Source: Candidatus Latescibacterota bacterium (lineage in GTDB: Bacteria > Latescibacterota > UBA2968 > UBA8231). Taken from it: a stretch of 64,000 bases of DNA. Position 1 is the stretch's first letter; every line of letters starts with the position of its first letter. Below, piece after piece: positions 21,494 through 43,445 of the stretch. The stretch spans positions 3,552,001-3,616,000 of the forward strand of contig CBDFJF010000002.1 in NCBI GenBank assembly GCA_965248265.1. Reading direction: 5' to 3'. The position numbers and the translations under genes were made by a program. Below the pieces are notes generated by a model, which was not told the origin of the DNA, searched no databases, and saw nothing but the letters and a program-made list of their open reading frames with translations.

Positions 21494-23209
21494 TCATTCT
21501 CCTTCTACAGTTGAGTTTCTGTTGACTAACAATTGACTCCTGCGCCGAAAGCTCCTCCTCGCCGCGAACTGGACGGCGATTGTCAGCAAGGCGCCCACGA
21601 GGCCAAGGAGAATGGGCTTATTGGTGGTGGGCTTCTGCAGAAGCAGGTAGTACCAGGTGGATACCGAGCACCGAGTTCCCGCCTCCCCGTTGGACCCGTC
21701 CCAGGCTGCAAAGGCGATTGGAATGAACGCTCCCACTTCGAGCTGGAGGTCGTTCTTATCCTCCGTCCGCAAAGATCTGTGGATCAATAGCTGGTAGCGG
21801 CCATGCGAATAGGTGATCCTACCACGCACGTCCTGGGTATCAGCCGGTTGCTCCTGGAACCGGGTCATGCCCTTCGCCCTTCCCTCGCTGACTTCCACCG
21901 ACACCCCGCTCGCCTCCGGTGACACAGATGGGCTCGCATGCCAGACCCACGCGTACGCGGCACGTCGCGCATCACCCATGAGGAAGTAGGGACGCACCGC
22001 TCCGTCGGATATCTTGGTGGGAAACTGCACGGCCAGGGCGTCGTCCAGCACCGCCTGCTGCTCTAACACGCCCTGATCTTCGACGGCCGCCTCGCCATTT
22101 GCCTCGTCGGCTGTGGCGATGCTCAGCGAGGGGTCGTGCCAGGTGACGAGAAGCGCCACCTCCTCCCCGTTGTGCATGGACTTGCCGAACACGGCTGTCA
22201 CGGTCGGCGCAAAGAGGCGTGGCTCAATGATCACCTGCCCGGCAAGGGGAAACATTGCGCCCTCCCCTTCCCCCCAGCGCGGGTCATCTGCTCGCTGCGG
22301 CAGCTCCCCTTCCACGAGCGCAGATTCCAGGACGATGGCCACTTCCGGTTTCTGCGCCGGCGACAGCGAACGCACGTAGTTGGCCAGATGCCATGTCTTG
22401 ACGCGTATCTCGCGCATGGCGTCGTCGTACCTCTCCCGTTCCTCAGCAGAGATTTCCTCCTCGTCCTCTATCATGATCTGAATGTCCTCGACCTCCATAT
22501 CCATCGGAAAACTCTCTTTGATCGAGGGCATTGGGGTCCCCGCCAACCCGCCCATGAAGCGCCTGTACAGATCCTCCTCCGCATCCCCGCCCCGAAATCG
22601 CCAGCTCATGGTCAGATCAGCGGGTCGGGTCGGATAATTCCACTCATCCAGCAGGGTCAGAGCCGAAGGACCGTCGCCGCGTCCCTGCTGGCCGTGACAT
22701 TTGGCGCATTCGAGCATCTCGAAGACTCTGCGTCCCTCTGACACGCTTTCCTCAGAACCGGGGACTCTATCCACCAACGCTATCTCCAGCGGCGGGGCAG
22801 TGGCGCGCTCGAAGTGCTTCGCGAAGGTCTTGATGTACGCCACGACCGCGAGTCGCTCCTCGTCGCTGAGTCCGGGCCAGCCCGGCATGGACGTACCCGG
22901 CATGCCGTCGGTGACGATGCGGAGCAGGTCGGCGTCCGTGGGCAGCTCCCGGGACGCGGTGGAACGGATCTTATACAACCCTCGGGTGAAGTCCCGCGGG
23001 CGTGGGTTCAAACGCTCGGCCCCGGAGCCGTCCCCCGCTCCTCCCGCACCGTGACAGTGTGCGCATTTGTTGTCGTATATGGCCTTGCCTGGCCCGATGG
23101 CCCCCACGTTCCCGGCCTGTGCTTGGGCTTGCCCGACAACCCCCGCCCCCAGGGCGCAGGCCATGGCGACCGCAAACAGGGCGAGCTGTTTCGAAACTGG
23201 CATACTCAT
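21494..23209 (-). CDS. Diheme cytochrome c fused to an EbdC/NxrC-like (DMSO reductase type II heme-b) domain, with C-terminal TM anchor
   Basis: CAHCH (PRPRDFT..YK.RST), CAKCH, W.DP…D.LAVQFP…YFLMGD…W.W…AFAAWDG.NGE; ATGA overlap at 23206-23209. Confidence 0.85.
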   Translation of the reverse strand: MSMPVSKQLALFAVAMACALGAGVVGQAQAQAGNVGAIGPGKAIYDNKCAHCHGAGGAGDGSGAERLNPRPRDFTRGLYKIRSTASRELPTDADLLRIVTDGMPGTSMPGWPGLSDEERLAVVAYIKTFAKHFERATAPPLEIALVDRVPGSEESVSEGRRVFEMLECAKCHGQQGRGDGPSALTLLDEWNYPTRPADLTMSWRFRGGDAEEDLYRRFMGGLAGTPMPSIKESFPMDMEVEDIQIMIEDEEEISAEERERYDDAMREIRVKTWHLANYVRSLSPAQKPEVAIVLESALVEGELPQRADDPRWGEGEGAMFPLAGQVIIEPRLFAPTVTAVFGKSMHNGEEVALLVTWHDPSLSIATADEANGEAAVEDQGVLEQQAVLDDALAVQFPTKISDGAVRPYFLMGDARRAAYAWVWHASPSVSPEASGVSVEVSEGRAKGMTRFQEQPADTQDVRGRITYSHGRYQLLIHRSLRTEDKNDLQLEVGAFIPIAFAAWDGSNGEAGTRCSVSTWYYLLLQKPTTNKPILLGLVGALLTIAVQFAARRSFRRRSQLLVNRNSTVEGE

Positions 23210-23964
23210 TCCCATGTCCTCGGAACCTGGCCGGTGGCCTCGTACATGAAGAGGATGACCTGCCAGATCTCCTCCTCCGTGAGCATTTCCTCCCAAGCGG
23301 GCATGGCCGAGCTCCACGGCGCCGAGATCGCGGGCAATCCCGGTCCCCCCTTGCTCACGCGCCAGAACACGAACGATTCCTGGAGCATGGCGAGGGTCCC
23401 GGGATCTGTGAAGTCCGCGGGGGGGGGACTGAAGGCGTGGGCGAACATGCCGTTGCCATCCAGGTCGTCGCCGTGGCAGAAGTGACAGTTCTGATAGTAA
23501 GTGGCCCGTCCCGCCTCCATGTGCCGGTCGTGGTTGCCGCCGTCATGACGCAGCGGGTTCTCCAGGCCGGCCAGGTCGATGTCCCGGCCGCGAAACTGAA
23601 TCGAGGCTGGAGGCGCTGGGTGAACGGTCCTCAGCTCCGCCGGGGGAACGCTGCTGACGGATGAGTTCGTGAACACGACAAAGGCCACCGCCAGAGGCAG
23701 GAAGGTGAAAACGACGATGCGGTGACGGGCTTTGTCTTCGTCGGCCAGCAGCTCCCCGATGGGACGGATGAACTCCCTAAGCCTTTCGTTTTCGACGCCG
23801 ATCTGCGACAGGATCCCGATGATGATGAGACCCATGTACAAGTAGACGATACTCGCCGGCAGCGGCGGCCTGACGCCGTAGGCCAGGCCGACGTAGCACA
23901 CGGCGACCAGGATCACCGCCTTTGAGAAACTCGAAAGCTGCCTCACGGCCTCCTCATTCGGCAC
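23206..23964 (-). CDS. Membrane-anchored monoheme cytochrome c
   Basis: Three N-terminal hydrophobic segments, CHFCH, PADFTDPGT, SAMPAW. Confidence 0.88.
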   Translation of the reverse strand: MPNEEAVRQLSSFSKAVILVAVCYVGLAYGVRPPLPASIVYLYMGLIIIGILSQIGVENERLREFIRPIGELLADEDKARHRIVVFTFLPLAVAFVVFTNSSVSSVPPAELRTVHPAPPASIQFRGRDIDLAGLENPLRHDGGNHDRHMEAGRATYYQNCHFCHGDDLDGNGMFAHAFSPPPADFTDPGTLAMLQESFVFWRVSKGGPGLPAISAPWSSAMPAWEEMLTEEEIWQVILFMYEATGQVPRTWE

Positions 23965-25342
23965 TTTCAGGCACAGAGCCCTTGAGGCTGGCCAGATAGG
24001 CGACCAGGTCGCGAAATTGCCTCACGGTGATGACGTCGTCGAATTTGGGCATTTTGGACTGCACCAGAAGCCTGCGCCCGGCAACGTTGGAGAGATCGCT
24101 CTTGGCGATCGTCAGCGTAGTGTCGGCGCTGCGGATCGTCAGGCTGGCCTCGTCTTCGTGCTCTATTGGGCCGCTCACCTTGTTCTCGCCGTCGCCGACG
24201 ACGGCGCTGATCCAGAAGTAACCCCGATCGGAAATCGACCGCGTATCGGCTATGGGCAGAAGCGCCAGATCGTCACGCTGCACGAGTCGCTCAGCACCCC
24301 CAGAGGCACTTTCGTCAACCGCTACTTCCTCCACCTCCTCCACATCTTCTTCCTCCTCCTCCTCACCCCATCCCCAGTCGTCGTCCTCCGCTTCCTCCAC
24401 CACGTCCAGTTGCAACACCAGCGCATCGCCCTCTTCCCTGACGAGTCTTCCCGCGAGCTCCTCGCCGTTGGCCAGGCTGAGCGTCGTCGATCCGTACCCC
24501 TGAACGATCTTGGCGTTGGGATCTAGGATCGATTCCTCCATGTAGTCCAACGTGTTGAGGGCCCCGATCTCCGTCAATTCGGGACCGACCTCCAGCTGGA
24601 CCTCGGCTGCGCCTACGCGGTGGCATTTGTCGCACTGCAGCTCCTCGACAAAGACCAGTCGACCGGCCTCGGGATCTCCCTGGGCTACCTTCTCGGGGAC
24701 CGCGGCGGCCGCGGTGATATCGATGGGCGGCACGATGGCCGTCAAATCCGGTTCGCCGCCCTGGCTCTGGAGAAAGGCGATCAGCGTTTCGATTTCCAGG
24801 GGGGAGAGGGCGATGGGAGGCTTCCACGCCGGAGGCATTATGTTGCCGTACCCCTTTACCAGATAAGCCTCCGGTAGGTACAGCGCCTCCACCAGATAAT
24901 CCCGGGTCGACGTGTCTTCCTGGCGTCCTCCGCCCGCGATGCCGATATCGCTCAGGTCCGGACAGCGCGGCGTAGTCGCCGACGCTCCGATGACGTGGCA
25001 GGTGGAGCACTTGCCCTTGCCGTAGAAGATCGACTTCCCCGCCGCGACAAAAGCTTCTGGGGTGCGCTCGATGTCACCGACGGCCACGGCGGCGCCGGAG
25101 CTACCCTGGGGGATGAGATTTCCCAGTAGGGCGTAGGACCAGATCACGGCCAGCGCGAAAGTCGCCAGCCGCATCAGATTCTGTTGTAGCGCCATGTTGG
25201 CGCAGATGGCCAGGAAGACCCACACCGACCACGACAGGATGTTCTGGTCAGCCAGGGGAAAAGGCGCAGCTCCCATCAGGAAAGCCCCCAGGCTCAACAG
25301 GAGAAGGGCGAAGATGAGAATCTTTACAGGTGCCCGGTGCAT
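23954..25342 (-). CDS. Membrane-anchored diheme cytochrome c
   Basis: N-terminal TM helices, CSTCH and CDKCH, distal Met motifs IMPP and SKMP; acidic insert. Confidence 0.88.
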   Translation of the reverse strand: MHRAPVKILIFALLLLSLGAFLMGAAPFPLADQNILSWSVWVFLAICANMALQQNLMRLATFALAVIWSYALLGNLIPQGSSGAAVAVGDIERTPEAFVAAGKSIFYGKGKCSTCHVIGASATTPRCPDLSDIGIAGGGRQEDTSTRDYLVEALYLPEAYLVKGYGNIMPPAWKPPIALSPLEIETLIAFLQSQGGEPDLTAIVPPIDITAAAAVPEKVAQGDPEAGRLVFVEELQCDKCHRVGAAEVQLEVGPELTEIGALNTLDYMEESILDPNAKIVQGYGSTTLSLANGEELAGRLVREEGDALVLQLDVVEEAEDDDWGWGEEEEEEDVEEVEEVAVDESASGGAERLVQRDDLALLPIADTRSISDRGYFWISAVVGDGENKVSGPIEHEDEASLTIRSADTTLTIAKSDLSNVAGRRLLVQSKMPKFDDVITVRQFRDLVAYLASLKGSVPESAE

Positions 25343-25359: not shown

Positions 25360-27087
25360 TCAGTTGGCAGCTTCCTCTTTCTTATCGCCCAACGATCCGA
25401 GCCAGAAGATGAAGCAGATCAAGGCGCCGAAAACGATGACGATGGCGGCGATGATGTTGGACGCGTCACCCACGGTCGGGGTGAAGGCATCTGGTGATGT
25501 GTCCCTCATGACGCCGTATATGTGCCAGTCCTCCCGGATGCCCGACCGCACGTACCCCATGAGTCCCATCATGGCGCAGAATGTGACAGCCAGCAATATG
25601 AGGATGTACTGAGACTGGTCCGTCATCTTACCCCACTGCACTTCGCCGGTGGATGAGGCCCGTCGATAGAGGATGACATCGAGGACGGTCACCGAGAACA
25701 GGACCGCCAGAACGACTACCACCTGTCCAGGGGTCAGGACGTTCACCCGCTCCAGACTGGGCACGTAGTACCCCATAACGCCAAGAACGACCACGATGGC
25801 GGCGGCGGCGGCGAAGATGGTGAACACCACGACGTTGACGGGTTTGGACCACCTCAATGTCGGGGTTTTGCCGGATCTGCGGTAAAAGAGAAAGGTCAGG
25901 AACGTGGTGAGGATGATGAGGTTTACGGCCGTGTTCTTGGCCGACATAACTCCGAAGACTCCCACGAGCGGATGGTGTTCACCGCCGATGGCCGCCTTCT
26001 CCACCGGGCTCAGGATCAGGGTCCTGGGAGTTGCCCACACGGCAATGCAGGCGATGAGGACCGCGAATACGAAAGGTCGGTACCGGCTGTATCGCTCGGC
26101 GCCTTTGATGCGGCCCATCCCCGACCACAGGTAGAAGTTCACGCCCAGGAAGAGTACGCCGATCATGGCCGCCTGAATGATGAACAGCCAGGAGAACAGG
26201 CTGCCCATCATGTTGATGCCCATGGTCTGGTTGAACTCGTAGATCTCCTTGGCGAGCCAGTACCCGGCAAAGGGCAGGGGGATGAGGGCGCAGACGGCGA
26301 TAAAGTTTCCGGTGTACCCCATCCAGTCGTAGTGGGCTTTGTCCGATTCGCTCGTGGCCGTGAGGAATCGGACCGCCGCGTAGGCAGCCACGACGGCTCC
26401 CCCGAAGGCGATGTTGGCGATGAAGCGATGTATGTTGATCGGCATCCAGGTGAAGTTGTAAACCGCATCCCCAAGACTGATCAGAGCTCCCTGCTCATCT
26501 ATTCCTGCCGGGCTGGTCATGAAGGTGAGCCAGGAATTGGCCACGCACATGATCGCCGTACCGAAGACGTTGAGTAGCACGCCGAAGGTCAGGTGCAGCC
26601 ACTTCCGGTTCATCAGCCGGTCCCACGTGTACCAATACAGATAGAGGCTGAAGGTCTCTCCGAAGAAGAGCGCCACGTAGAGGACGTACGTGGGCGTGAA
26701 AATATTGGTCATGTAGCCAAAGAAGCGGGGATAGAACCCGATCATCAGAAACAGCAGCACGGCACCGAACATGGCCGTGGTGGAAAACGCCACGAGACAC
26801 AGCTTGATGAACTCGCGGGCCATGCGGTCGTAGCGCGGGTCGCCGGTGCGCACACCGACGAACTCGATGATGAGGGCAAAGAGTGGGACACCGAGGATGA
26901 AGGCGGCGAACATGAGGTGGAGCTGGGCCGCAACCCAGACCGCGACCCGGCTGCCTACCACGGGGAATTCTCGGTACTCTGGGATGTCGGAGAAGGCGCC
27001 CTGGGACCAGGCCGGTGTGCTCGTGAAGAGAAGTATCAGACCGAAGGAGATGGCCGTCAGTGGCGGTGAACTGTGGCCCTCTGGCAT
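25360..27087 (-). CDS. Cytochrome bd-like oxidoreductase subunit I (CydA superfamily, no CydB partner)
   Basis: AQLHLMFAAF.LG.P, FF.E, ANSWLTFMTSP.G, NIHR and GY.RS..R..W motifs; polytopic membrane protein; ATG at 27087 preferred. Confidence 0.85.
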   Translation of the reverse strand: MPEGHSSPPLTAISFGLILLFTSTPAWSQGAFSDIPEYREFPVVGSRVAVWVAAQLHLMFAAFILGVPLFALIIEFVGVRTGDPRYDRMAREFIKLCLVAFSTTAMFGAVLLFLMIGFYPRFFGYMTNIFTPTYVLYVALFFGETFSLYLYWYTWDRLMNRKWLHLTFGVLLNVFGTAIMCVANSWLTFMTSPAGIDEQGALISLGDAVYNFTWMPINIHRFIANIAFGGAVVAAYAAVRFLTATSESDKAHYDWMGYTGNFIAVCALIPLPFAGYWLAKEIYEFNQTMGINMMGSLFSWLFIIQAAMIGVLFLGVNFYLWSGMGRIKGAERYSRYRPFVFAVLIACIAVWATPRTLILSPVEKAAIGGEHHPLVGVFGVMSAKNTAVNLIILTTFLTFLFYRRSGKTPTLRWSKPVNVVVFTIFAAAAAIVVVLGVMGYYVPSLERVNVLTPGQVVVVLAVLFSVTVLDVILYRRASSTGEVQWGKMTDQSQYILILLAVTFCAMMGLMGYVRSGIREDWHIYGVMRDTSPDAFTPTVGDASNIIAAIVIVFGALICFIFWLGSLGDKKEEAAN

Positions 27088-27543
27088 GCATTTGCCTTGC
27101 GTACGGCAGGGAGCTAATTGGCGGGTCAAAGTTGTTCGAATTCTCCTGCCTTCTTGTGGCCTCGCTTGAAACTGGCCAACCTGTTGAGCAAGGTCCACTA
27201 CATGCAGATGGCAGCTGTCGACCGACAGAGCTGGTGATCGTCAGCTGGATACTCTCAGTCCAGCCGCTGACCCAGATACGCTATAGCAAGTGGTTGCAAA
27301 TAGCAAGTGGTCACAAGGAATTGAGACGATTTCGTCCCACATCGTCGTCGCCATGACTGCCCCACTCCATACGGACACATGTGGAGGGCGTCGGCCTGCC
27401 AGCGCCGCGTTTGACTGCGCCGCACTATACCGTATATCCTGCCTAACCGTCAATCAAGAAAAAGCGGATTGAGCGGGGGAACGGTTTGTGTTGAGGCGAA
27501 TTGGAGACAAAACTGAAAGTGAAAACTAGCATTCGTCTTTTAT

Positions 27544-27565: not shown

Positions 27566-27590
27566 CACATCCCTTAACACTCCACGTGAC

Positions 27591-28091
27591 GTGCTTACCT
27601 TCGAAACCTTCATTCTTTGGCTACATCTGGCAGCTGCAGTAATTTGGTTTGGAGGCATGTCCTTCGTGACCTTCGTACTACTGCCACTATTGCAACGCTC
27701 CACCTCCTCCCCGAGAGAATTCTCTGGGATAATCGAGAGGGCAGTGAGGCGTTTTCAAACCATCAGTTGGGAGGCGGTCGCAATCATATTTATTACGGGA
27801 ATTTTCAATCTAACCAATGCCGGGATTGTGCGTGAATTTAATTTTAGCGTGGCCTATTTGCATGTAGTGGCCATAAAGCTGCTTCTCCTTGTCGTGATCA
27901 TTGCCATCCAGTCGTTTCAAAGCTACAGTATTTTGCCAAAACTTATTTGTGCGCCATCGTCGGACGAAAACTTGCCGTCGAGGTCGGACTCCTTCGACAG
28001 ACTTCGCAAGAAGACAATATTCCTGTCAATTCTGAATTTAGTATTGGCCGGCTCAGTGATTTATTTAGGGTTGGGGCTGAGGTATCAATAA
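27591..28091 (+). CDS. CopD/DUF4149-like four-TM membrane protein
   Basis: WLHLAAAVIWFGG.F…LLP, ITG..N, IKLLL motifs. Confidence 0.75.
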   Translation: MLTFETFILWLHLAAAVIWFGGMSFVTFVLLPLLQRSTSSPREFSGIIERAVRRFQTISWEAVAIIFITGIFNLTNAGIVREFNFSVAYLHVVAIKLLLLVVIIAIQSFQSYSILPKLICAPSSDENLPSRSDSFDRLRKKTIFLSILNLVLAGSVIYLGLGLRYQ

Positions 28092-28105
28092 GGAGAAGGC
28101 GAGGC

Positions 28106-28624: not shown

Positions 28625-28703
28625 CTTGTATTGAGACTATTCGATGATAGACTCGGAGTATACCAGCAGGCCACTGCAGCCTCGCTGAGCCGGCGATCCG
28701 TCT

Positions 28704-29219
28704 TCACCTAGCCAACTTTTCAGGCACTTCCGGAGAATAATCGAATTTGTCCGAAAGCGCTGCCTTGGCCGCAAAGGCGAAAAGGGTAATCAATCCCCAG
28801 GATAAACCCACCACAACCCCCACGTCGATGATGCCCCGCCAAGGCTGGTCGATACGCTGTATGACGATAATCAAGATGATTATTGCCGCGGTGAGCACCA
28901 CGATATTTCGCTGTCTATTCCCGAGTACGTGAAAGTAGCCAACACAGAACAGCGGCGCGAGGAAAACATGCAAGGCTTTCGGATTTTGGCGCAGATATTT
29001 ACACCTTGCCGTGACCCTTGGCGAGAAGCTGTTCTGGAAGCCGCGATATCCCTCCGAATAAGCCATGAATAACGTATTGATAACCAGCAACGCCCAATGA
29101 TACCAAACCAAATCATACAGAAAAGCCTCTGCCGCGACCGGCGTCAATCGATATAAGGCAAAACCGATCAACAATGCGATTCCGGCAAATCCCCATATTG
29201 CTCCCAATAAGCCGATCAT
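28704..29219 (-). CDS. Hypothetical membrane protein
   Basis: 171 aa, several TM helices, FMAYSEGYRGFQ..FSPRV and QPWRGIID.GV motifs. Confidence 0.75.
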   Translation of the reverse strand: MIGLLGAIWGFAGIALLIGFALYRLTPVAAEAFLYDLVWYHWALLVINTLFMAYSEGYRGFQNSFSPRVTARCKYLRQNPKALHVFLAPLFCVGYFHVLGNRQRNIVVLTAAIIILIIVIQRIDQPWRGIIDVGVVVGLSWGLITLFAFAAKAALSDKFDYSPEVPEKLAR

Positions 29220-29241
29220 TGTATCAGAGTATCAGAAAAAA

Positions 29242-29604
29242 TCAAAAGTCAATTCCCGGCAAATTCTCCCATTTGGGTTCGCCTTCCGGCTTGAAATTTC
29301 GCGTACAAACGAAATTCAATTCGTGATGATGAAAATTTAGTTTGAATTTGCCGCCGCCAAAATTTTTCAGTAGATAATTCATGGGATCGTTAACCAGCGG
29401 GGTCATATCTTTTCCATTGAAGCGCGCAAGTCCTTTGAATTGGACTGAGTTTTGCCATGGTGTCTGAACCAATACCGTTACCGATGATTCGCGCAATGTC
29501 TGGAAAAAGGCATTTTGCAGGTCATCCTGAGACGGATTCGGATTTCCCAAACGTTCCAGCTCCCGGGTAACGTATTCTTCATACATTTCCCAAACCCATT
29601 CCAT
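29242..29604 (-). CDS. Hypothetical protein
   Basis: 120-aa ATG ORF preceded by GAGG; no family recognised. Confidence 0.7.
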   Translation of the reverse strand: MEWVWEMYEEYVTRELERLGNPNPSQDDLQNAFFQTLRESSVTVLVQTPWQNSVQFKGLARFNGKDMTPLVNDPMNYLLKNFGGGKFKLNFHHHELNFVCTRNFKPEGEPKWENLPGIDF

Positions 29605-30464
29605 ACGTAACCTCTGGTGAAGAACTTCGCTAATATCAGAGCGAAGGAGGGCCTATCCCTCGGCCAGCACTCTCTGCACCACCCTCGTGACACACGGCGC
29701 AACCGTGCCTTTGATATAGCACTTTCCCATGCAGGATCGCTTCGGCTCGGGTCTCTTCTCGCCCCCTCTCCGCCGAGCAACCGACAGCCAGAAGGAACAA
29801 CAGACTGAAACTGGCCGCCAGTACAGGGCTACCCCGGCCTCGTCAGCATCAGCCCAATTCTCCCGTCGGAAGTCTTTCTAAGAGCGTCAGAAGAGCAGGA
29901 TCTCCACTGTTATTTACTACTTAAGTACAAGTTTTTATTGAGCTTATTGGCTGTGGCGAGCATCTGGTTCGAGAGCTCGATTCTGTCTCGGCTCGCCTCA
30001 GATGGCACGCTTAGTCCTCCTCCTGTCGCGAGGCGTAACGGGCTCCGCTCTCGCTCACAGGCAAACAAAAACGCTGGCAGTTGGGAATCGGTCGTAGAGA
30101 GGCACGTGTGGAGTCGTATTCGCTGAATGGTCAGCGGCGTTCAACATCAGCTCGTGTCGGATCTCCAGCGCTGCACGCCGACTGATGACCCATCTCGGCG
30201 CTGAGATGGTTCACAGCGAACAGATGTGTCCGAAGGGCCGAGGTCGTCGTGCGTGCGCGAAGGCCGATCTCCCCCGCTGACGGTCCAACCATGACGTCTC
30301 ATGCCGGTCGAGGTCACCGCCAAGCGCCGAGACGGGCAACGAGGCTCGACCAGAATCCCCTTGACCGCTACCGATAATACAGCTTAATCTTGGAGCTTCG
30401 TACCGCAATTTGCAATCCAAAATCTATTCGACTCAGTCCTCTCTCATCTGATCATATTACGTAG

Positions 30465-31700
30465 ATGGTTTCCCATAACGAGTACCGCCCGTCCCTGATC
30501 TCCTGGAACCTCACGAAGATGTGCAACCTGCGGTGTCCGCACTGTTACCTAGACGCCGGCAAGAAAGAGGAGGATGAGCTCACCACCAATGAGTGCTTTG
30601 CGCTTATTGACGAGATGAAGGTATTGGGAACGGAAATGCTCATTCTTACCGGTGGGGAGCCACTATTGCGAAAGGATATCTATGATATCGCAAAGTATGC
30701 TTCCGAGCGGGGCATTTGGGTTGTTATGGGCACAAACGGCGTTTTAGTTACTGACAAAGTTGTGCAGAAAATGTTGGAATGTGGCGTAAAAGGCGTGGGC
30801 ATCAGCATTGATTCAGTGGATCCCGAGAAGCACGATGGATTTCGCGGGGGTCCCAAATCATGGGAATATTCGGTTCGGGCGTTGGAAATCTCTCGAGCCT
30901 ACGGTTTGGAAGTCCTGGTTCAAACGACGATCATGGAAACCAATTACGACGAGATTCCCCAACTGATTGACTTTGCCAGAGAGAAGGGAGCCTGGTCCTT
31001 CAACCTCTATTTTCTGGTGCAGACAGGCCGCGGCCAGGAAATGAACGATCTATCTCCACAGCAGACCGAGGCGATGCTCACGAACCTGGTTGAGTTACAG
31101 AACGAGTATCGACCCATGCTGGTGCGCTCCAAATGTGCACCGCACTTCAAACGCATTGCCTTTGAGAGAGCACTGGGGGGTCTAGAGAGCGGGGGGTGCA
31201 TGGCAGGCACTCAATATGGGCGGATTACACCTGAAGGAAATGTGACGCCATGCCCGTACATGACGGTCGTTGCAGGCAACATTAGAGAAAACAGACTCAC
31301 AGAAATCTGGCAGACTGCTCCAGTTTTTCAGGAATTAAGGAATCTGAACCAACTGAAAGGCCGCTGTGGAGGCTGTGAGTTTAAGGAGTTGTGTGGCGGC
31401 TGTCGCTGTCGGGCCTACGCTGCTTATGGCGACTATTTGCAGGAAGATCCGGCCTGTACATATCAACCATCCGGCCAGCCATTACAATTCGAAACAATCA
31501 CTTGGAATGCCGAGGCCAAGTCTCGTCTCGGGCGCATCCCTATTGCCTTTATTCGTGAGAAGGTTAAGAAGGGAGTGGAGACCTATGCGCAGCGTATTGG
31601 GGCTCGTGTCATCACCGCAGAATTGATGAAGATGGCTACGGCCGGCATGGAACGGCCGGCGACTTTCAATAAATTAAGAGAAAGTGAACATCACGAATGA
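30465..31700 (+). CDS. Radical SAM/SPASM protein (AhbD/NirJ-like) with C-terminal PCP_red-like domain
   Basis: CNLRCPHC, TGGEPLLR, SPASM cysteines (GCMAG, PCPY, CGGCEFKELCGGCRCRA, DPAC); tail WNAEAKSRLGRIP. Confidence 0.9.
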   Translation: MVSHNEYRPSLISWNLTKMCNLRCPHCYLDAGKKEEDELTTNECFALIDEMKVLGTEMLILTGGEPLLRKDIYDIAKYASERGIWVVMGTNGVLVTDKVVQKMLECGVKGVGISIDSVDPEKHDGFRGGPKSWEYSVRALEISRAYGLEVLVQTTIMETNYDEIPQLIDFAREKGAWSFNLYFLVQTGRGQEMNDLSPQQTEAMLTNLVELQNEYRPMLVRSKCAPHFKRIAFERALGGLESGGCMAGTQYGRITPEGNVTPCPYMTVVAGNIRENRLTEIWQTAPVFQELRNLNQLKGRCGGCEFKELCGGCRCRAYAAYGDYLQEDPACTYQPSGQPLQFETITWNAEAKSRLGRIPIAFIREKVKKGVETYAQRIGARVITAELMKMATAGMERPATFNKLRESEHHE

Positions 31701-31803
31701 CTCATCTAAGCAGAATTCATGATTGAATTAGATACAGCCGCGTTGACGAAACATGTCCATGTGTCAAACGGCGTAGCCCATCTGAGGCAGGACGACACCA
31801 TTC

Positions 31804-32256
31804 GTGAATTCGCAATTTGATCATCTTGTAGACCCCATGCAGCTCAGCAACCCGAAACCCCATTGGAACGAACTCGAATTTCTTAGCTGGAAAGAATTCA
31901 AGCAGATGGCGCCCTCTATCATCCAGCTGGAAATATCCCGCATCGGAGACATAGTCAATGCCCCGGCTACGGACATCGACTTGTGCAACGTGTTCGTGAA
32001 GGTCCGGTTCGAGTTGAGAAAATTTCAGGAGTGTCTGCAGCAGACAAACAGGCCCCCGCTGAAAGATCCTTGTGTTGCACATCTTCGGACTGCGATCATA
32101 TGTCTTTCCATTCAAAATCAAATACAGGACAAAAAGACGGCGACAACAGTGAAGTACGTTTTTGATAGATTGAACTCCCTGCTGAAGAGGACCGATCTGA
32201 TATTCCAAAACACCACTGATATTCCGCCCATGCAGCACCCATCCGGAGGCCAATAA
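31804..32256 (+). CDS. Hypothetical protein (start may be ATG 31837)
   Basis: ORF whose stop directly abuts the start of the USP gene. Confidence 0.65.
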   Translation: MNSQFDHLVDPMQLSNPKPHWNELEFLSWKEFKQMAPSIIQLEISRIGDIVNAPATDIDLCNVFVKVRFELRKFQECLQQTNRPPLKDPCVAHLRTAIICLSIQNQIQDKKTATTVKYVFDRLNSLLKRTDLIFQNTTDIPPMQHPSGGQ

Positions 32257-34206
32257 ATGTTCGAAAAGATCTACGTCCCTCTTGATAACTCTGACCACTC
32301 GATGACGAGCGCTGAGCTGGCGATCGATCTGGCGAAGAGATTCGGCTCAGAGCTGGTGGGCTGCCATGCCTATGCTGCGAGGATGCACGACATCCGATTC
32401 AGGCAAATGGAGTTTACGCTGCCTTCAGAATACCAGGTGGAAGAAGAGATGGAGAAGCAGCGAAACATCCACGACACGTTGATCACGATGGGATTAGAGC
32501 TCATTTCGGATTCCTATTTGGAGGTCATGAAAAAGAGATGCGAGAGCGAGAAGCTTCCCTTCGAACAGAAGATGATGGACGGCAAAAACTTTAAGGTCCT
32601 TGTCGATGACATCAACAACAGCGATTACGACCTGGTAATCCTGGGTGCGCTGGGGCTTGGCGCGGTGCGGGATAGTATGATCGGCAGCGTCTGTGAAAGG
32701 GTGGTTAGAAGAACCAAGACCGATACACTCGTGATCAAGAACACTTCTCCCCTCGAAGATCAACTCAGTGCAAACGGCAATGGCGAGGTCAAGCATGAAC
32801 TTGGCAATGGAGGCAAGATCGTTGTCTGCGTCGACGGCAGCCCTGAGTCCTTTGCCGGGCTTCGAACGGCCATCTCCCTCGGGAGGGCTGTAAACAAAGA
32901 AGTGGAGGCCATCGCCGTTTACGATCCCTACCTGCACTATACCATGTTCAACAGCATCGTGAATGTCTTAACCGACAAGGCATCAAAAGTTTTCAAATTC
33001 AAAGAACAAGAACAGCTGCACGAAGATGTGATCGACACGGGCCTGGCACAGATATATCACTCCCACCTGGAGGTGGCGCGAAAGATCGCCAAGGAAGACG
33101 ACATCGACTTGAAGATAACTCTTCTCGATGGTAAGGCCTTTGAGAAGATTATCCAATATGTCAGACGAGAGAGACCATGGCTCCTGGTCATAGGACGGAT
33201 TGGTGTGCACAGCGATGAGGATATGGATGTTGGCAGCAATAGCGAAAATCTTCTTCGCTTGGCGCCCTGCAACGTTTTTCTCTCCAGCAAGAGATTTATC
33301 CCGGCCATCGATGTTCAGGCGGAAGAATCGATGACCTGGACCGAAACGGCTACCGCACTGTTGAATACCGCTCCGGAAGCGGTCAGGGGCATTGCCCGCA
33401 CGACCATACACAGGTGGGCCATGGAACGGGGGCATTCGGTCATAACGAGGAAAGTGATCGAGAAATCAATGGCTAGCATATTGCCGGAAAAAGCGATGAG
33501 GGCCATGGGGATCATCGCCGAGGAAGTCGCCATAGAAAAAGGAAATCTACTGGAGTCAGAGACCTATGTCTGTCGTGAGTGCGGCTATGCCGCCCGCGAC
33601 GTGGACCCGGTGGTCTGCCCGGTCTGCAATGGACCGGCAGAAGGATTCCAGAAGATCGACAAACAGGCAATTGAGAATCTGGCACCGCTGGAAGGAGACA
33701 TCGAAGAAGAAAAGACCTTCGACAACTTGAAATTGAAATGGACCAGCGAAGCAAAACAAGCTTTACACGGTGTGCCATCTGGCTACCAGAGAAGAAGGGC
33801 GAGAGCGCAAATCGAAAAGAGCGTCAGGGTGCGCAAGCTTCCGGCCATCACCAGGGAGCTGGTTTTTGAGGTTGCCGGGGACATTATCGAAGAGACCAAA
33901 AACCTGGAAGAGCGCGGCCGACTAAAGAAGGAGATGGTTTCCAGCACAGAAAGTGTTTTGGAGCAACACGCCATTCAGGATGGCAAATTTCGATGGAGCG
34001 CTTCCGCCGTGGCTAGGCTGAATCGCGTCCCTGAAGGATTCATGCGTGATCAGACAAAGGATCGAATCATAAATTGCGCCGAAAAGAAATCTGTGGACCT
34101 GGTAACCTTGGAAATCGCCGAGGAGGGGATTGCGGAAAGCCGGAACATCATGGCGGAGACGATAAAAAGGGACAGCAAAGATAAAGGTGAATCCCCCAAC
34201 AAATAA
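32257..34206 (+). CDS. Tandem universal-stress-protein domains plus rubredoxin-like site and three PCP_red-like domains
   Basis: KIYVPLDNS…LVILGALGLG…IGSVCERVV; KIVVCVDGS…GSNSENLLR; CRECG…CPVC; three W-x2-(E/x)A-x3-L-x3-P repeats. Confidence 0.88.
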   Translation: MFEKIYVPLDNSDHSMTSAELAIDLAKRFGSELVGCHAYAARMHDIRFRQMEFTLPSEYQVEEEMEKQRNIHDTLITMGLELISDSYLEVMKKRCESEKLPFEQKMMDGKNFKVLVDDINNSDYDLVILGALGLGAVRDSMIGSVCERVVRRTKTDTLVIKNTSPLEDQLSANGNGEVKHELGNGGKIVVCVDGSPESFAGLRTAISLGRAVNKEVEAIAVYDPYLHYTMFNSIVNVLTDKASKVFKFKEQEQLHEDVIDTGLAQIYHSHLEVARKIAKEDDIDLKITLLDGKAFEKIIQYVRRERPWLLVIGRIGVHSDEDMDVGSNSENLLRLAPCNVFLSSKRFIPAIDVQAEESMTWTETATALLNTAPEAVRGIARTTIHRWAMERGHSVITRKVIEKSMASILPEKAMRAMGIIAEEVAIEKGNLLESETYVCRECGYAARDVDPVVCPVCNGPAEGFQKIDKQAIENLAPLEGDIEEEKTFDNLKLKWTSEAKQALHGVPSGYQRRRARAQIEKSVRVRKLPAITRELVFEVAGDIIEETKNLEERGRLKKEMVSSTESVLEQHAIQDGKFRWSASAVARLNRVPEGFMRDQTKDRIINCAEKKSVDLVTLEIAEEGIAESRNIMAETIKRDSKDKGESPNK

Positions 34207-34240
34207 TGAAGGCTCCAATCCGCTCTCTCTGCGTTAGAAA

Positions 34241-35128
34241 ATGAAAACCTACAAAGACATAGCCGGCGATGGCGGATCGAATATTGTCGAGCAGGTCACC
34301 GCGCAGCAACACCGCGTGCAGTCGAGGATGGCCTCCGTGCGCCATATTGTTGCCGTTATGAGCGGCAAGGGCGGAGTCGGAAAGAGCTCAGTTGTCGTAA
34401 ATCTTGCCTCGGCCTTCGCGCTTGAGGATTACTCCGTGGGAATATTGGATGCCGATATCAACGGTTCCTCTATACCAAAGATGACCGGTGTTCGCGGACG
34501 GCCGCTGGAGACCGGTGAAACCGGAATAATGCCCATGGCGGCCGCTCGTAATCTCAAGGTCATGTCGATTGATCTGTTTTTGCCTGATGACAGCACCCCG
34601 GTTATTTGGGACGCTCCCACGCAGAAGGACGCTTACACCTGGCGCGGCATGATGGAGACGGCGGCAATCCGGGAATTCCTGTCCGACACGGAATGGGGCG
34701 AGTTGGATTTCTTATTCATTGACTTGCCGCCAGGAACAGACAAACTGCCAAATATGTTAGACCTGCTCCCGCAAATTTCGGGTACCATCATTGTGACGAT
34801 CCCATCAGAACTGTCCCAGTTCGTTGTCGGTAAGTCAATCACAATGGCGAAGGAATTGCTTCAGACACCGGTAATCGGCTTGGTCGAGAATATGTCGGCA
34901 CATATTTGCAGTCGATGTGGCCATGAGGAGGAATTGTTTCCGGGAAGAATCGTCGAGGGGCTGGCGGAACAACATGATGTGCCGTATCTGGGCAGGATTC
35001 CGTTCGACCCGAGAATGGCTGTTTGTGCTGATGAAGGTTTGCTCTATATGGAAGAGCACGGCGACTTACCGGCTACCAATGCGATAGGGCAAATTGCTCA
35101 AAGGGTAGGTGAGTTTTTGAAACAATAG
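34241..35128 (+). CDS. Mrp/NBP35 (ApbC-like) P-loop ATPase, Fe-S carrier family
   Basis: SGKGGVGKS, LDADING.SIP, WGELDFLFIDLPPGT, GLVENMS..ICSRCG. Confidence 0.92.
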   Translation: MKTYKDIAGDGGSNIVEQVTAQQHRVQSRMASVRHIVAVMSGKGGVGKSSVVVNLASAFALEDYSVGILDADINGSSIPKMTGVRGRPLETGETGIMPMAAARNLKVMSIDLFLPDDSTPVIWDAPTQKDAYTWRGMMETAAIREFLSDTEWGELDFLFIDLPPGTDKLPNMLDLLPQISGTIIVTIPSELSQFVVGKSITMAKELLQTPVIGLVENMSAHICSRCGHEEELFPGRIVEGLAEQHDVPYLGRIPFDPRMAVCADEGLLYMEEHGDLPATNAIGQIAQRVGEFLKQ

Positions 35129-35218
35129 AACGCGGATGACACAGATTTACGCTGATTGTCGCGGATGAAATGCCAGACATCGAATCCGCGTAGATCCGTA
35201 TGACCTGTGTAATCCGTG
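35129..35218. repeat. REP-like imperfect long hairpin built from (C)GCGGAT/ATCCGC(G)-type units
   Basis: CGCGGAT 35160-35166 pairs with ATCCGCG 35184-35190; the outer arms carry further degenerate complementary units. Confidence 0.6.
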
Positions 35219-35236
35219 CTATTATGAACGGAGTAA

Positions 35237-35746
35237 ATGATGAAATTCTTATGCGTGGAATGTGACGAGCCCATGAAGCTGAAGGACACCAAAGGCCCCG
35301 ATAACGGCTCCATGACGGTTGTCTTCGCTTGCCCCAAATGCGAACGGCAAATCGCCATGCTGACCAACCAAATGGAAACGCAAATGGTTCGCTCGCTTGA
35401 TGTGAAGCTTGGTGGAGGCCCAACTCTGGCAGAGCCCATGGGGACCCTTAGGAGTTCTTTGGCCCAAAAAAGCGACGATGTAGTCACATCATCGATTCAT
35501 TCTCATCAGGAAACAGACCAAAAGGAGTCAGGTTCCAAATGTCCGTTTACCGGTGCTGTTGCCGATGCCTTCGAAACCTCTGGCGAAATCGTCTGGACCC
35601 AGGAGGCCGAGGAACGTCTTAGCAGAATCCCACCATTTGCCAGATCCATGGCCAAGCAGGGAATTGAACGGCACGCCCGCGAAAGGGGATATAAAAAAAT
35701 AAGTGATGCGGTGATGGAGGAAGTGAGGGATCAGTTCGCAATGTGA
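35237..35746 (+). CDS. Small CxxC…CxxC metal-binding protein with C-terminal PCP_red-like domain
   Basis: CVEC…CPKC, KCPF, WTQEAEERLSRIPPFAR. Confidence 0.85.
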   Translation: MMKFLCVECDEPMKLKDTKGPDNGSMTVVFACPKCERQIAMLTNQMETQMVRSLDVKLGGGPTLAEPMGTLRSSLAQKSDDVVTSSIHSHQETDQKESGSKCPFTGAVADAFETSGEIVWTQEAEERLSRIPPFARSMAKQGIERHARERGYKKISDAVMEEVRDQFAM

Positions 35747-35821
35747 AGGTCAGTTGGCATTGCAGCAGTCGCCCGAGGAGCCTGAATCTGGAGCGGTCTA
35801 ATCAACTGAACTGTACGGCAG

Positions 35822-36382
35822 TTGCCGATGTCATCCTCTAGAACGATACATCTGACCCCGAAGCAGTTTGGCGCCACCAATGCCATCGTGACGCTCACTG
35901 CGATGAGCTTCCTCGTCTGGTTGATCTACTTCCACGAGGGGAATGACAGCGCTTCGCAGGGCGCCCAGCTACCCCTGATCAACGCGATCCTGAACGGCAC
36001 CAGCGCGGTGTTGATCTCGGTGGGGCTGTGGGCGATCAAGCAGCGTAAGCGCACACTGCACATGCAGCTGATGCTCGCTGCGTTCGCGTCGTCGGCGCTG
36101 TTTCTGGTGAACTACATCTACTACCATTTTTCTCACGGGGATACACACTTCGCGGGGCAGGGTATCATCCGGCCCATCTACTTCACGGTGCTCATCAGCC
36201 ACATTCTGCTATCTATGGTGACCTTCCCGATGATCTTGACGTCATTGTATCTGGGACTGAGCAATCGTCTGGTAACCCATCGCCGCCTATCCAAGTGGAC
36301 GTGGGTGGGGTGGATGTATGTCTCGGTCACGGGAATTGTGATCTATTTCATGCTCCACGTGATCGGCTGGGAGTTGAGCTGA
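35822..36382 (+). CDS. DUF420 (CtaM/YozB-like) membrane protein, oxidase assembly associated
   Basis: LP.INAILN, H…M..A…S.LFL..Y, Y..L.SHI.L, HRR…W.YVSVTG…Y. Confidence 0.88.
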   Translation: MPMSSSRTIHLTPKQFGATNAIVTLTAMSFLVWLIYFHEGNDSASQGAQLPLINAILNGTSAVLISVGLWAIKQRKRTLHMQLMLAAFASSALFLVNYIYYHFSHGDTHFAGQGIIRPIYFTVLISHILLSMVTFPMILTSLYLGLSNRLVTHRRLSKWTWVGWMYVSVTGIVIYFMLHVIGWELS

Positions 36383-36510
36383 AACGACTCCGCTACGGCG
36401 TTGTCCCAGTAGTCCCCCTTTCGCTCTTCACGAAGCCGCGCCGGGCAATCCAACGGGTAAAACGAGTGCAGGCGTAATGGACGCCACGATCGTAGTGGAT
36501 GATCAGGCCT
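36381..36510 (-). mobile_element. Degenerate IS3-family transposase (integrase core) fragment
   Basis: GLIIHYDRGVHYA (cf. HSDRGSQY) and, after a frame change, RKGDYWDNAVAESF (cf. RKGNCWDNAVAESF). Confidence 0.75.
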
Positions 36511-36912
36511 CTCGGTAGGACGCCGATGGAGGAATACGCTCGGAGAAGGGCAGCCCAACAAACATCATGAAGTCCACCTTAACTTCGCTGCCCGGCTGTC
36601 CAAAGGATGGGGACCACCTCTGCCCAGGGTCCCAGATGGTATCCGGGGTGCATAGGGCGCCGATGGCCCGCCAGGAAGCACTTGACCCACCGCCAAAAAG
36701 AGGCTTTGTTTGTCCACAAGCATTCACCTCCCTGGTAGCCAGCGAAGGCCGCGGAATTTGGCTGAGTTGGTGGAGTACGCCTGGGCAGCCGTCAGGATTC
36801 GGGAGCACTGAAGGGACCACCTCGCTGCCGCGTCCAAGACGGATGGCGAAGACGGACGATTGAGCTACAGCTTGATAACCAATATCTTCGAAAGAAAAAA
36901 GGGAGCTTTTTT

Positions 36913-37566
36913 ATGCTAGATTGGTTACCAGAAAATATATCAACCTATGGAGCAGAGATCGACTCTCTTTTCTATCTGCTGTACTATATCACTTTAGCAA
37001 CCTTCATACTGGTGGCGGGAGCCATGGTCGTATTCATGATCAAGTACCGTCACCGCGAGGGACACCGGGCGAAATATATCCACGGGCACGCTGGTCTAGA
37101 GATTACATGGACTGTTCTTACTGCTGTGACCGTGATTGCATTTGCTTTGATTAGCGCGCCACTGTGGGCCAAGATAAAGCAAGATGTACCCTCTTATGAC
37201 ATTCAAATTCAGGTAACCGGCAAGCAGTTCAACTGGGATGTTCTCTATCCCGGCCCTGACGGAGAGTTTGGTACATCGGATGATCTCGAAATAGAAAACA
37301 TGGTCCACGTTCCGGTCAATAAGGTTGTGAAGGTTCTCCTTACATCGAAGGATGTTATTCACAGTTTCTTCGTGCCGGCCCTGCGCCTGAAGCAGGATAG
37401 CCTACCGGGCCGGAAGATCAATTCATGGTTCGAAGCGACCAAGACGGGAACATATGAGATACCCTGTGCCGAATTGTGTGGATTCGGACACTCCGGAATG
37501 CTCGGTTATCTAATCGTGCACACGGATGAAGATTATGCATCATGGGTGCAGGAGAATTGGCCGTAG
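36913..37566 (+). CDS. coxB: Cytochrome c oxidase subunit II (no fused cytochrome c)
   Basis: Two TM helices, DVIHSF, CAELCGFGHSGM CuA motif. Confidence 0.95.
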   Translation: MLDWLPENISTYGAEIDSLFYLLYYITLATFILVAGAMVVFMIKYRHREGHRAKYIHGHAGLEITWTVLTAVTVIAFALISAPLWAKIKQDVPSYDIQIQVTGKQFNWDVLYPGPDGEFGTSDDLEIENMVHVPVNKVVKVLLTSKDVIHSFFVPALRLKQDSLPGRKINSWFEATKTGTYEIPCAELCGFGHSGMLGYLIVHTDEDYASWVQENWP

Positions 37567-37694
37567 CCGCAGTCGAGGGACTCAGAGTAGACCACGGATC
37601 GGAATCCTGGACATCAACTAGCCGGATCGAACTCAGGTCAGCAAAAAACCAATTAATTACCGACAGAGTTCAACTTAACACAGAGGGATGCCCC

Positions 37695-41284: not shown

Positions 41285-41299
41285 GGGGTAAGAAGGCTA

Positions 41300-42713: not shown

Positions 42714-43445
42714 ATGAAACTGATCAGACACCCACTCACAGCTGTGGCGATGATGGCATTGGTCGTGGCCCTTTCCGGCATGGTCCGAGCGCAGGCGTCC
42801 AGCGCAGGAGGGTCAATTAGCGGCGCGGTCAAGTACGATGGCGAGGCGGCGGCGGCGAAAAAGCTGGCGGTTACTAAGGATGTGAAGGTTTGCGACGTGC
42901 ACGAGAAATTCTCTGAGGACCTAGTTGTCTCTAGCGCGGGTGGTATCCAAAATGTCTTCGTGCAGGTGCTCGGGGCGAAGGGTGAAGTCACAATTCCCAA
43001 GGAGCGACCCGCTCTCGTCCAAAAGGGATGTCAGTTCATTCCCCATGTGCAGGTCATCCCTGCCGGTTCGAGAGTGAACATCATGAATGATGATGGCATC
43101 GCCCACAATCTCCATACGCTCAGCGTGGAGAATCCGTCCTTCAATCGACTGCAACCCGGCATCAAGAAGAGGATGATTACCCGAAAAAACGATCTGCTAA
43201 TTCCGGAGATCATACCGATCAAGTGCGATCTTCACGGCTGGATGAAGGCGTGGATCATCGTCGCCGATCACCCCTATCACGCCATATCCGATCAGGAGGG
43301 TTCATTTCAGATTACCGGTATCCCGCCGGGGACGTACACGGTTCAGTTCTGGCACGAAACACTGGGGCAACTGTCGCGGGAAGTGACCGTGGAGACCGGG
43401 GCCGATACAAAGGTCGGTGATGTAGCGTTCAAGGCCGCAATGTAA
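42714..43445 (+). CDS. Exported cupredoxin-like / carboxypeptidase-regulatory-like domain protein (paralog of 20764-21492)
   Basis: Signal peptide, GSISG, HNLH…CDLHGWM, GSF.I.GIPPGTY..FWHE. Confidence 0.85.
   Translation: MKLIRHPLTAVAMMALVVALSGMVRAQASSAGGSISGAVKYDGEAAAAKKLAVTKDVKVCDVHEKFSEDLVVSSAGGIQNVFVQVLGAKGEVTIPKERPALVQKGCQFIPHVQVIPAGSRVNIMNDDGIAHNLHTLSVENPSFNRLQPGIKKRMITRKNDLLIPEIIPIKCDLHGWMKAWIIVADHPYHAISDQEGSFQITGIPPGTYTVQFWHETLGQLSREVTVETGADTKVGDVAFKAAM

Follow-up and report, generated by a model that had tools for sequence, protein, structure and literature searches.

The stretch of DNA analysed here (64,000 nt; hereafter the window) comes from a Candidatus Latescibacterota bacterium (assembly GCA_965248265.1, contig CBDFJF010000002.1, positions 3,552,001-3,616,000, forward strand). 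An operon at 30465-35746 of the window encodes a radical S-adenosylmethionine (radical SAM) enzyme, a tandem universal stress protein (USP) with a rubredoxin-like knuckle and a small protein with CxxC motifs, which carry five PCP_red domains among them, together with an Mrp-type ATPase. This PCP_red module and the gene of a CydA-like, 'bd-like' oxidase subunit (25360-27198) are strictly co-distributed: both are patchy in each group of genomes studied and are always found jointly. We propose, with a probability of about one half, that the module is a set of genes for the maturation of a cofactor, probably an iron-tetrapyrrole, of this cytochrome-c-linked oxidase. The host genome comprises 7,320,621 bases and is 92% complete, and a cluster look-up for a cultured host returned only records of metagenome-assembled genomes.

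The phyletic profile was drawn from 405 genomes of three lineages, namely the host's own phylum (168 genomes), Rhodothermales, the order of genome G001 (151), and Calditrichia, the phylum of G003 (86). The USP-PCP_red protein served as the marker of the module and orthologs of the window's CydA-like protein as the partner. In Rhodothermales, marker and oxidase were found in the same 40 genomes, and in the Calditrichia phylum in the same 10. In the host's own phylum seven genomes had the marker and six the oxidase, all six being among the seven; in the remaining genome the marker is only partly matched, on a contig of 2.1 kb. Altogether, both genes were present in 56 genomes, the marker alone in one (the fragment), the oxidase alone in none and neither in 348. 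The radical SAM gene showed a similar distribution, as a radical SAM-PCP_red ortholog of at least 66% identity was present in 39 of the 40 marker-bearing Rhodothermales and in none of the 111 others, G202 having only paralogs of 31-34% identity. In the five genomes without a bd-like gene in the 10 kb around the module, an ortholog (53-64% identity) was found at another place each time; in the three Poribacteria among them it lies 5-7 kb past the edge of the locus.

A scan of species genomes confirmed 562 of 587 candidate USP-PCP_red stretches. Gene order was compared in the loci around the best 80 of the confirmed stretches, and counts out of 55 refer to loci flanked by 9 kb or more on either side (full-flank loci). 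The 80 loci belong to Marinimicrobia, Latescibacterota, Calditrichia, Rhodothermales, Krumholzibacteriia, Poribacteria, Entotheonella and others. The Mrp and CxxC-PCP_red genes were present in 55/55 full-flank loci, separated by a median of 46.5 bp in 72 loci, and the radical SAM gene was present in 44/55. A bd-like or heme-copper oxidase gene was found within 10 kb in 53/55; of the remaining two, L030 has a Rieske/cytochrome b/multiheme cytochrome c cluster and L045 a HmuY gene. The Rhodothermales locus L023 is a row of genes on one and the same strand, made up of the bd-like gene, three cytochromes c, the radical SAM-PCP_red gene, two genes of unknown function, the small gene orfX, the USP, Mrp and CxxC genes and a CopD-like gene.

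Heme-copper oxidase genes are frequent neighbours as well: one was found within 10 kb in 47/55 full-flank loci, and the module stands among CtaB, DUF420 and SCO1 genes both in the window and in Poribacteria (in L061 also with CoxBA). This setting is in keeping with one half of the idea of a first-pass annotation of the window, according to which the operon may make or modify a heme for the adjacent bd-like or heme-copper oxidases; for the heme-copper enzyme, this could be a cofactor of the heme O/A type. However, A-type CoxA occurs in 118 of the 168 genomes of the phylum and the module in only 7, which argues that the heme-copper oxidase is not the specific partner. In G013 and G166 the nearest CoxA is distant from the module or on a different contig, and the module-adjacent CoxA, 61-69% identical in Poribacteria, is only 43-52% identical in Rhodothermales, Calditrichia and others, with a different gene order. 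In addition, CtaA was present in 6/6 module genomes tested (the host and five others), which also rules out the module as a replacement for the heme A synthase. A heme supply for the heme-copper enzyme is thus highly improbable, and the whole-genome profiles indicate that the partner is the bd-like oxidase. The annotation's expectation that the operon co-occurs with an adjacent oxidase was therefore upheld for the bd-like enzyme and not for the heme-copper one. Of its picture of a metallocofactor maturation machine, the conserved operon, the dedicated Mrp and the apparently tetrapyrrole-type radical SAM enzyme were supported, with the bd-like oxidase alone as the partner.

The CydA-like protein aligns to residues 6-203 of Geobacillus CydA (5doq_A), including a conserved His and the FFxE...YxYTWDR motif, and keeps the N-terminal oxygen-site helices. 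It has no CxxCH, and its gene is followed by those of membrane-anchored cytochromes c, one of them fused to an EB_dh heme-b domain. By these features it appears to fit the description of the OR-N family. In the accessible text of two publications, OR-N 'bd-like' oxidases are described as widespread, including in nitrite oxidisers, and as lacking experimental confirmation of their subunit composition and function (10.1101/2021.01.16.426971, PMC10839748). The main text of the first of these, the part covered by our search, does not contain the term 'radical SAM'. The cytochrome c-EB_dh gene that ends the bd-like operon of the window also follows the bd-like gene in L023.

The identity of the PCP_red domains was examined with hidden Markov models. 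Pfam family PF08369 (PCP_red, cut-off 32.5 bits) matched the radical SAM protein at residues 347-390 (43.4 bits, E 3.4e-11), the USP protein in three stretches (79.7 bits, E 1.6e-22) and the CxxC protein at residues 120-164 (56.9 bits, E 2.2e-15). In a six-frame scan of the whole genome, four of the five single domains were above the cut-off and the fifth reached 31.7 bits. These were the only five matches of the genome, every one inside the operon, and Synechococcus alone matched among 14 control genomes; the pattern is therefore far beyond chance. The same scan revealed no BchB/ChlB elsewhere in the 92%-complete genome, and no bch/chl families were found among the 56 open reading frames (ORFs) of the window taken into Pfam scans. 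The model of subunit B of dark protochlorophyllide reductase (DPOR; TIGR01278) scored 53 bits against a cut-off of 490.35, over model positions 457-507 only (the last ~50 residues), and the nitrogenase-like Oxidored_nitro domain is absent from all three PCP_red proteins according to Pfam. The first-pass annotation had placed the tryptophans of five PCP_red motifs at 31503, 33337, 33739, 33994 and 35594, at the ends of the radical SAM and CxxC proteins and three times in the USP protein, and had noted an Mrp/ApbC-type ATPase and the lack of bch/chl genes in the window. All of this proved correct, coordinates included; the four genes that it described were confirmed, and orfX had been overlooked.

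The AlphaFold2 (AF2) model of the CxxC protein (predicted local distance difference test, pLDDT, 74.8) matched the solved PCP_red structures 2kru (Z 8.1, root-mean-square deviation 1.8 A over 55 residues) and 2l09 (Z 6.4, 2.0 A over 54 residues), and Foldseek gave TMt values of 0.78 and 0.70, respectively. Of the five domains, that of the CxxC protein alone was fold-searched singly; the three of the USP protein share the same strand-helix-helix-strand-helix pattern in their AF2 model. A profile of the CxxC family matched the final ~60 residues of solved ChlB/BchB chains (2xdq_B 449-510 of 511, E 1.6e-10), and no ChlB/BchB chain appeared among the 50 structure-search matches listed for the CxxC model, nor a full one among its Foldseek ranks 1-50, listed with similar chains of the same entry left out. 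Below the two PCP_red entries, the structure search returned AAA+ lid-like helical domains with Z of 4-5.7, a range counted as common. A helix-turn-helix or DNA-binding reading of PCP_red, taken from a Joint Genome Institute (JGI) label on relatives, found no support in the structure-search lists. As to the DPOR domain itself, the accessible text of two reports describes that BchB helix 398-420, upstream of the Pfam PCP_red domain, covers protochlorophyllide in trans (PMC12022308, PMC4071322).

In a tree of the PCP_red domains the copies cluster by position rather than by organism, with 6 label changes (minimum 5, shuffled mean 20.1), a count that was as low in 0/200 shuffles. The first and second domains of the USP protein each form one clade (support 100/98 and 100/97). 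This grouping indicates that the five copies are old paralogs whose separate roles predate the distribution of the module over several phyla. Five PCP_red domains are the rule among the loci, and 13 loci carry six. In Poribacteria (L061 17009-19690; also in L044) the additions next to the module are a sixth, divergent PCP_red domain, in which the W is replaced by C, on a 137-aa protein, a PBS-lyase-HEAT repeat protein and a Chlor_dismutase/ChdC-like gene. More widely, PCP_red matched 2078 clusters at E<=1e-3 among 1.84 billion representatives; among the best 102 of these clusters, USP is present in 39 and a rubredoxin knuckle in 13.

The radical SAM protein was matched by the Pfam families Radical_SAM (108.7 bits) and SPASM (42.3 bits). 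It has the motif C20-x3-C24-x2-C27, a GGE motif and eight SPASM cysteines between residues 245 and 331. In the NCBIfam ranking, NirJ2 came first (TIGR04055, 350.6 bits, model positions 1-325 of 326), ahead of AhbD (TIGR04545, 322.3 bits, 320.9 in the genome scan, 1-339 of 339), the uncharacterised radical SAM/SPASM family TIGR04053 (294 bits), NirJ, NirJ1, a pseudo-SAM/SPASM family and AhbC, all above peptide maturases (<=170 bits). Judged by these matches, we assign the enzyme to a putative tetrapyrrole (AhbD/NirJ2) type. A link to tetrapyrroles is also seen in the gene content of related loci, with ChdC-like and PBS-lyase-HEAT genes in L061, HmuY in L045 and the Rieske/cytochrome b/multiheme cytochrome c cluster in L030. 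It might then simply be an oxygen-independent heme b synthase with AhbD function, serving general heme supply at low oxygen, with the other proteins feeding clusters or electrons. The full-length matches to NirJ2 and AhbD fit this, as do the facts that the gene is the sole close AhbD-like gene of the genome, that no ChdC was found in the 92%-complete host genome, and that in Poribacteria the module has a ChdC-like gene beside it. Yet both scores are well below the equivalog cut-offs of 500. The host already encodes HemF and HemH (ferrochelatase), so that its supply of ordinary heme b does not depend on the module, and its genome yielded no second enzyme of the AhbC kind. The genuine AhbC/AhbD-like pairs found elsewhere in the phylum are 32-42% identical, have no PCP_red and, except in G019, are in genomes without the module. 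Moreover, the gene tracks one oxidase exactly and not any heme pathway. We consider heme b synthesis unlikely for these reasons.

The SPASM domain also brings to mind a modification of a protein, for example a cross-link in an oxidase subunit or in a small conserved protein such as orfX or up1. Peptide or protein maturases are numerous among radical SAM/SPASM enzymes, such families match the enzyme at 115-170 bits, and several small conserved proteins travel with it. The much higher scores of the tetrapyrrole families, the uncharacterised TIGR04053 aside, argue against it, as does the finding that the radical SAM gene has no small gene as a constant neighbour, and this explanation is very unlikely. 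An alteration of an iron-tetrapyrrole for the bd-like oxidase remains the reading that we prefer.

The Mrp protein has an invariant P-loop (GKGGVGKS) and an invariant C223-x2-C226 in 31 sequences. Its N-terminal stretch (34241-34300) is specific and conserved, with M1, K2, D10, G12, S13 and Q18 invariant in the same number of sequences, and no separate N-terminal domain family was matched there in Pfam. It is the third Mrp copy of the genome, the two paralogs encoded elsewhere being 36-38% identical to it, and it is below the equivalog cut-offs of MrpORP (NF041136, 260.7 against 450 bits) and ApbC (NF008669, 185.2 against 348 bits). The CxxC protein, encoded next to it, has an N-terminal four-Cys zinc ribbon that is NrdR-like by fold and, just before its PCP_red domain, a CPF motif (C102, P103, F104) invariant in 28/28 homologs and preceded by K in 26/28. 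This motif presumably resembles the Cys-Pro heme-regulatory motif; Cys-Pro motifs can bind heme. A predicted complex between the Mrp dimer and the CxxC-PCP_red protein received a score of 0.36, and the best of three controls 0.01, with runs agreeing in at least 85% of contacts and a partner pLDDT of at least 63. In the calibration, 58 of 80 solved complexes and 2 of 110 mismatched pairs passed the mark; passing scores of 0.60 or less comprise only 7 of the 80 solved complexes and both of the mismatches. The docking of PCP_red on Mrp, proposed by the first-pass annotation, thus receives weak support from one predicted complex, that of the CxxC protein.

The USP-PCP_red protein matched PF00582 (USP) in two stretches (122.3 bits). 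An alignment of 45 sequences, with a mean column identity of 66%, showed that both USP domains keep G-x2-G-x9-G-S (residues 130-144 and 313-327), with G130, G133, G143, G313, G316, G326 and S327 invariant. We take G-x2-G-x9-G-(S/T) to be the nucleotide-binding motif of ATP-type USPs. Foldseek of the AF2 model (pLDDT 71.2) returned the tandem USPs Rv2623, UspE and TTHA0350-ATP with E of 2e-12 to 1e-9. The four cysteines of the rubredoxin-like knuckle (C439, C442, C454, C457) are invariant; PF21349 scored 20.6 bits in the window protein against a cut-off of 26.5, and 27.7 and 33.7 bits in the relatives from L061 and P0129. Among 8000 scored sequences, 4647 relatives were found at E<=1e-3. The best 120 of them are 63-100% identical, with 94% or more of the query covered in 116 and less in 4, and are annotated at most as "universal stress protein".

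These features could also be those of cytoplasmic subunits that feed electrons to the bd-like enzyme or regulate it, with the rubredoxin part as a relay and the USP domains as ATP sensors. The invariant four-Cys knuckle, the conserved USP motifs and the fold match to ATP-binding tandem USPs are all consistent with it, and OR-N operons with alternative electron donors have been described by Murali, Gennis and Hemp, according to the accessible text of their study (10.1101/2021.01.16.426971). An intact radical SAM enzyme together with an Fe-S carrier ATPase is, however, typical of biosynthesis, and the oxidase operon already encodes three cytochrome c donors, which makes such subunits decidedly unlikely.

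According to the maturation model that we favour, the radical SAM enzyme would alter an iron-tetrapyrrole (heme or coproheme-like) required by the bd-like oxidase, and Mrp would load or repair its three [4Fe-4S] clusters. The rubredoxin and USP parts may couple this maturation to the redox and ATP state, and the position-specific PCP_red domains may act as protein-protein adaptors that hold the parts together. The module thereby predicts a special cofactor or assembly step for the bd-like oxidase, and it names the genes to be co-expressed for a first heterologous production of such an oxidase. It also provides a testable function for PCP_red outside chlorophyll synthesis and for a large protein family labelled only "universal stress protein". 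A bolder and improbable extension is that OR-N-type oxidases carry a new modified heme, made O2-free by the AhbD/NirJ-like enzyme, with clusters or low-potential electrons from an Mrp that would dock on PCP_red much as BchL presumably docks on BchNB. If true, PCP_red would serve tetrapyrrole enzymes generally as the docking site for SIMIBI ATPases that bear Fe-S clusters.

Several points weigh against the maturation model. The radical SAM enzyme is below the curated cut-offs of every named family, its presumed substrate class follows from family resemblance alone, and SPASM enzymes also modify peptides and proteins. The pass of the Mrp/CxxC complex is a weak one, and such passes are more often wrong than right unless the contact was likely beforehand. 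The Entotheonella locus L045 has no radical SAM gene within 10 kb. Two conserved genes are deleted from the module in the host while the rest is intact, which indicates that not every part of it is essential. The bd-like protein is placed with OR-N on the strength of features, not of a tree. The profile consists of plain co-occurrence counts over genomes whose kin are not independent, and the co-distribution, patchy as it is, could in part be due to a single transferable island and not to need. In the window, the GC content is 0.49-0.53 over 28-44 kb and ~0.55-0.64 outside, the module copy shares 87-88% identity with copies labelled Marinimicrobia and Latescibacterota, and 7/168 genomes of the own phylum carry the module. 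The GC dip and the patchy spread look like a transferred island carrying the module and the heme-copper oxidase cluster; the low-GC stretch ends just short of the bd-like gene.

The deletion affects two genes of ~260 and ~200 aa located between the radical SAM gene and orfX, which are intact in 17-20/80 loci (e.g. L008 7917-9440, L023 7725-9576) and of which the host genome keeps a 33-codon stub. Short gaps of ~550-655 bp between the radical SAM and USP genes in G103 and G104, the two nearest relatives of the host, suggest that the same deletion probably occurred in both; in G163 the gap is 2.1 kb, which leaves room for both genes. A protein-atlas lead, unconfirmed, relates the larger deleted gene to a pyridoxamine-5'-phosphate-oxidase-like family (0.95, 209 shared features). 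The coordinates of the module and of its neighbours are given in Table 1.

Table 1. Features of the module and of the adjacent oxidase clusters, in window coordinates (TM, transmembrane segments)
Coordinates	Strand	Feature	Basis
21494..23317	-	Membrane-anchored cytochrome c (2 CxxCH) fused to EB_dh-type heme-b domain; last gene of bd-like operon	Cytochrom_C 72 bits, EB_dh 47 bits
23206..23964	-	Monoheme cytochrome c, membrane-anchored	Pfam; 1 CxxCH
23954..25342	-	Diheme cytochrome c, membrane-anchored	Pfam; 2 CxxCH
25360..27198	-	CydA-like 'bd-like' oxidase subunit, 612 aa, ~12 or more TM, no CxxCH	PF01654 69.8 bits (cut-off 26.2)
27591..28091	+	CopD/HemJ-like small membrane protein, 5 TM	CopD 43 bits, UPF0093 19.7 bits
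28106..28624	-	up3, conserved soluble protein, no known family	26/80 loci; no Pfam at E<=1
28704..29219	-	up2, 4-TM protein, nearest relatives only	2/80 loci
29242..29604	-	up1, 120-aa soluble protein, no known family	34/80 loci; no Pfam
30465..31700	+	Radical SAM-SPASM enzyme, putative AhbD/NirJ2 type, 411 aa; C-terminal PCP_red at 31497-31649	Pfam, NCBIfam, cysteine motifs
31719..31820	+	33-codon remnant of conserved ~260-aa gene	tblastn 76% over 33 aa
31804..32256	+	orfX, small conserved protein, no known family (likely start ATG 31837)	36/80 loci; no Pfam
32257..34206	+	Tandem USP - PCP_red - rubredoxin-like 4-Cys knuckle - PCP_red - PCP_red, 649 aa; PCP_red at 33331-33477, 33733-33882, 33988-34137	Pfam, alignment, AF2, Foldseek
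34241..35128	+	Dedicated Mrp/NBP35-type P-loop ATPase, invariant CxxC, 295 aa	PF10609 256.2 bits (cut-off 27.1)
35237..35746	+	Zn-ribbon (4 invariant Cys) - variable linker - KCPF - PCP_red (35588-35743), 169 aa	Pfam, alignment, AF2
35822..36382	+	DUF420 membrane protein, starts adjacent heme-copper oxidase cluster	Pfam 143 bits
36913..42195	+	A-type heme-copper oxidase cluster: CoxB, CoxA (665 aa), CtaB, CoxC-like, 93-aa 2-TM, CoxC	Pfam, NCBIfam
42714..43445	+	post1, secreted or anchored, CarboxypepD_reg domain	Pfam; 21/80 loci; directly before USP gene in L030

Among the small genes, orfX lies a median of 42 bp upstream of the USP gene, and its conservation in more than a third of the loci (36/80) indicates that it is a real gene. 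The CopD/HemJ-like, up1, up3 and post1 genes recur in 21-34/80 loci, the CopD/HemJ-like one (23/80) mostly directly after the CxxC-PCP_red gene. The up1 proteins are 41-84% identical across phyla, with 29 invariant columns in their alignment, and the protein atlas gave no usable match for them. Pfam at E<=1 returned nothing credible for orfX, up1, up2, up3 and the two extra genes. Rfam gave no match at E<=1 on 27000-44000 of the window, and neither promoter-like sites (16 against 14.5 +/- 4.2) nor terminator-like sites (21 against 15.9 +/- 4.1) were more frequent than in shuffled sequences.

Some further features of the window and of the related loci were noted. An alternative complex III operon (multiheme cytochrome c, Fe-S, NrfD, ActD), followed by SCO1 and a caa3-type oxidase, occupies 8376-20455, so that the window holds three terminal-oxidase systems within 35 kb. 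The gene at 20764-21492 (minus strand) and post1 encode paralogous proteins of ~242 aa that begin with a signal or anchor and end in a CarboxypepD_reg/fn3_3 domain, each gene standing at the edge of an oxidase cluster. In CoxA (37542-39539) the COX1 domain begins at residue 85, and most relatives in the phylum align only from residue ~160. This extension is common to the module-adjacent copies (84-90% identical), and two module-less genomes have copies of 60-61% identity that align from residue 40-58. The two CoxC-like genes at 40592-42195 and the 93-aa two-TM protein gene between them form a trio that is conserved in Poribacteria. In Entotheonella L045 (13784-14778), genes for a 106-aa protein and a HmuY-family (heme-binding) protein come after the USP, Mrp and CxxC genes.

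Compared with known systems, the PCP_red domains of the module share Pfam family and fold with the C-terminus of BchB/ChlB and with the stand-alone 2kru and 2l09 (Asr4154) proteins. As in DPOR, a SIMIBI-class ATPase with an Fe-S cluster belongs to the partner system. Unlike DPOR, the module has no nitrogenase-like domain, distributes five PCP_red copies over three proteins and is found in a host without DPOR. The ATPase itself has the PF10609 domain, P-loop and invariant CxxC of the Mrp/ApbC/NBP35/NUBPL carriers, including Desulfovibrio MrpORP, and differs from them by its own N-terminal stretch, by the CxxC-PCP_red gene always following it and by being a third genomic copy. The radical SAM enzyme resembles AhbD/NirJ2 (heme b synthase) and NirJ (heme d1 pathway) over the full length of the radical SAM and SPASM core. 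Like AhbD of M. barkeri, it has CxxxCxxC and cysteines enough for two auxiliary clusters, the number reported for that enzyme in the accessible text of one study (PMC10452713). In contrast to AhbD, NirJ2 and NirJ, it bears an extra C-terminal PCP_red domain and scores below the equivalog cut-offs; it is found in genomes with a complete HemF/HemH route and no AhbC partner, and it is tied to a bd-like oxidase instead of a siroheme route or a nitrite reductase. That oxidase shares with the OR-N family of the cytochrome bd superfamily a CydA homolog with an N-terminal four-helix core, no heme-c motif in CydA, and cytochromes c alongside.

A full-text literature search returned nothing on PCP_red outside DPOR, nor on a radical SAM gene with bd-like oxidases. 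Accessory genes that handle heme travel with terminal oxidases or reductases in several systems, such as the nir genes of heme d1, CtaA/CtaB, CydDC and HemW, and the module follows the same accessory-gene logic. To our knowledge, none of these systems uses PCP_red, a USP-rubredoxin scaffold or a private Mrp. Accessory heme genes accompanying a terminal oxidase are thus a known logic, and it is the parts of the module and its target that are new.

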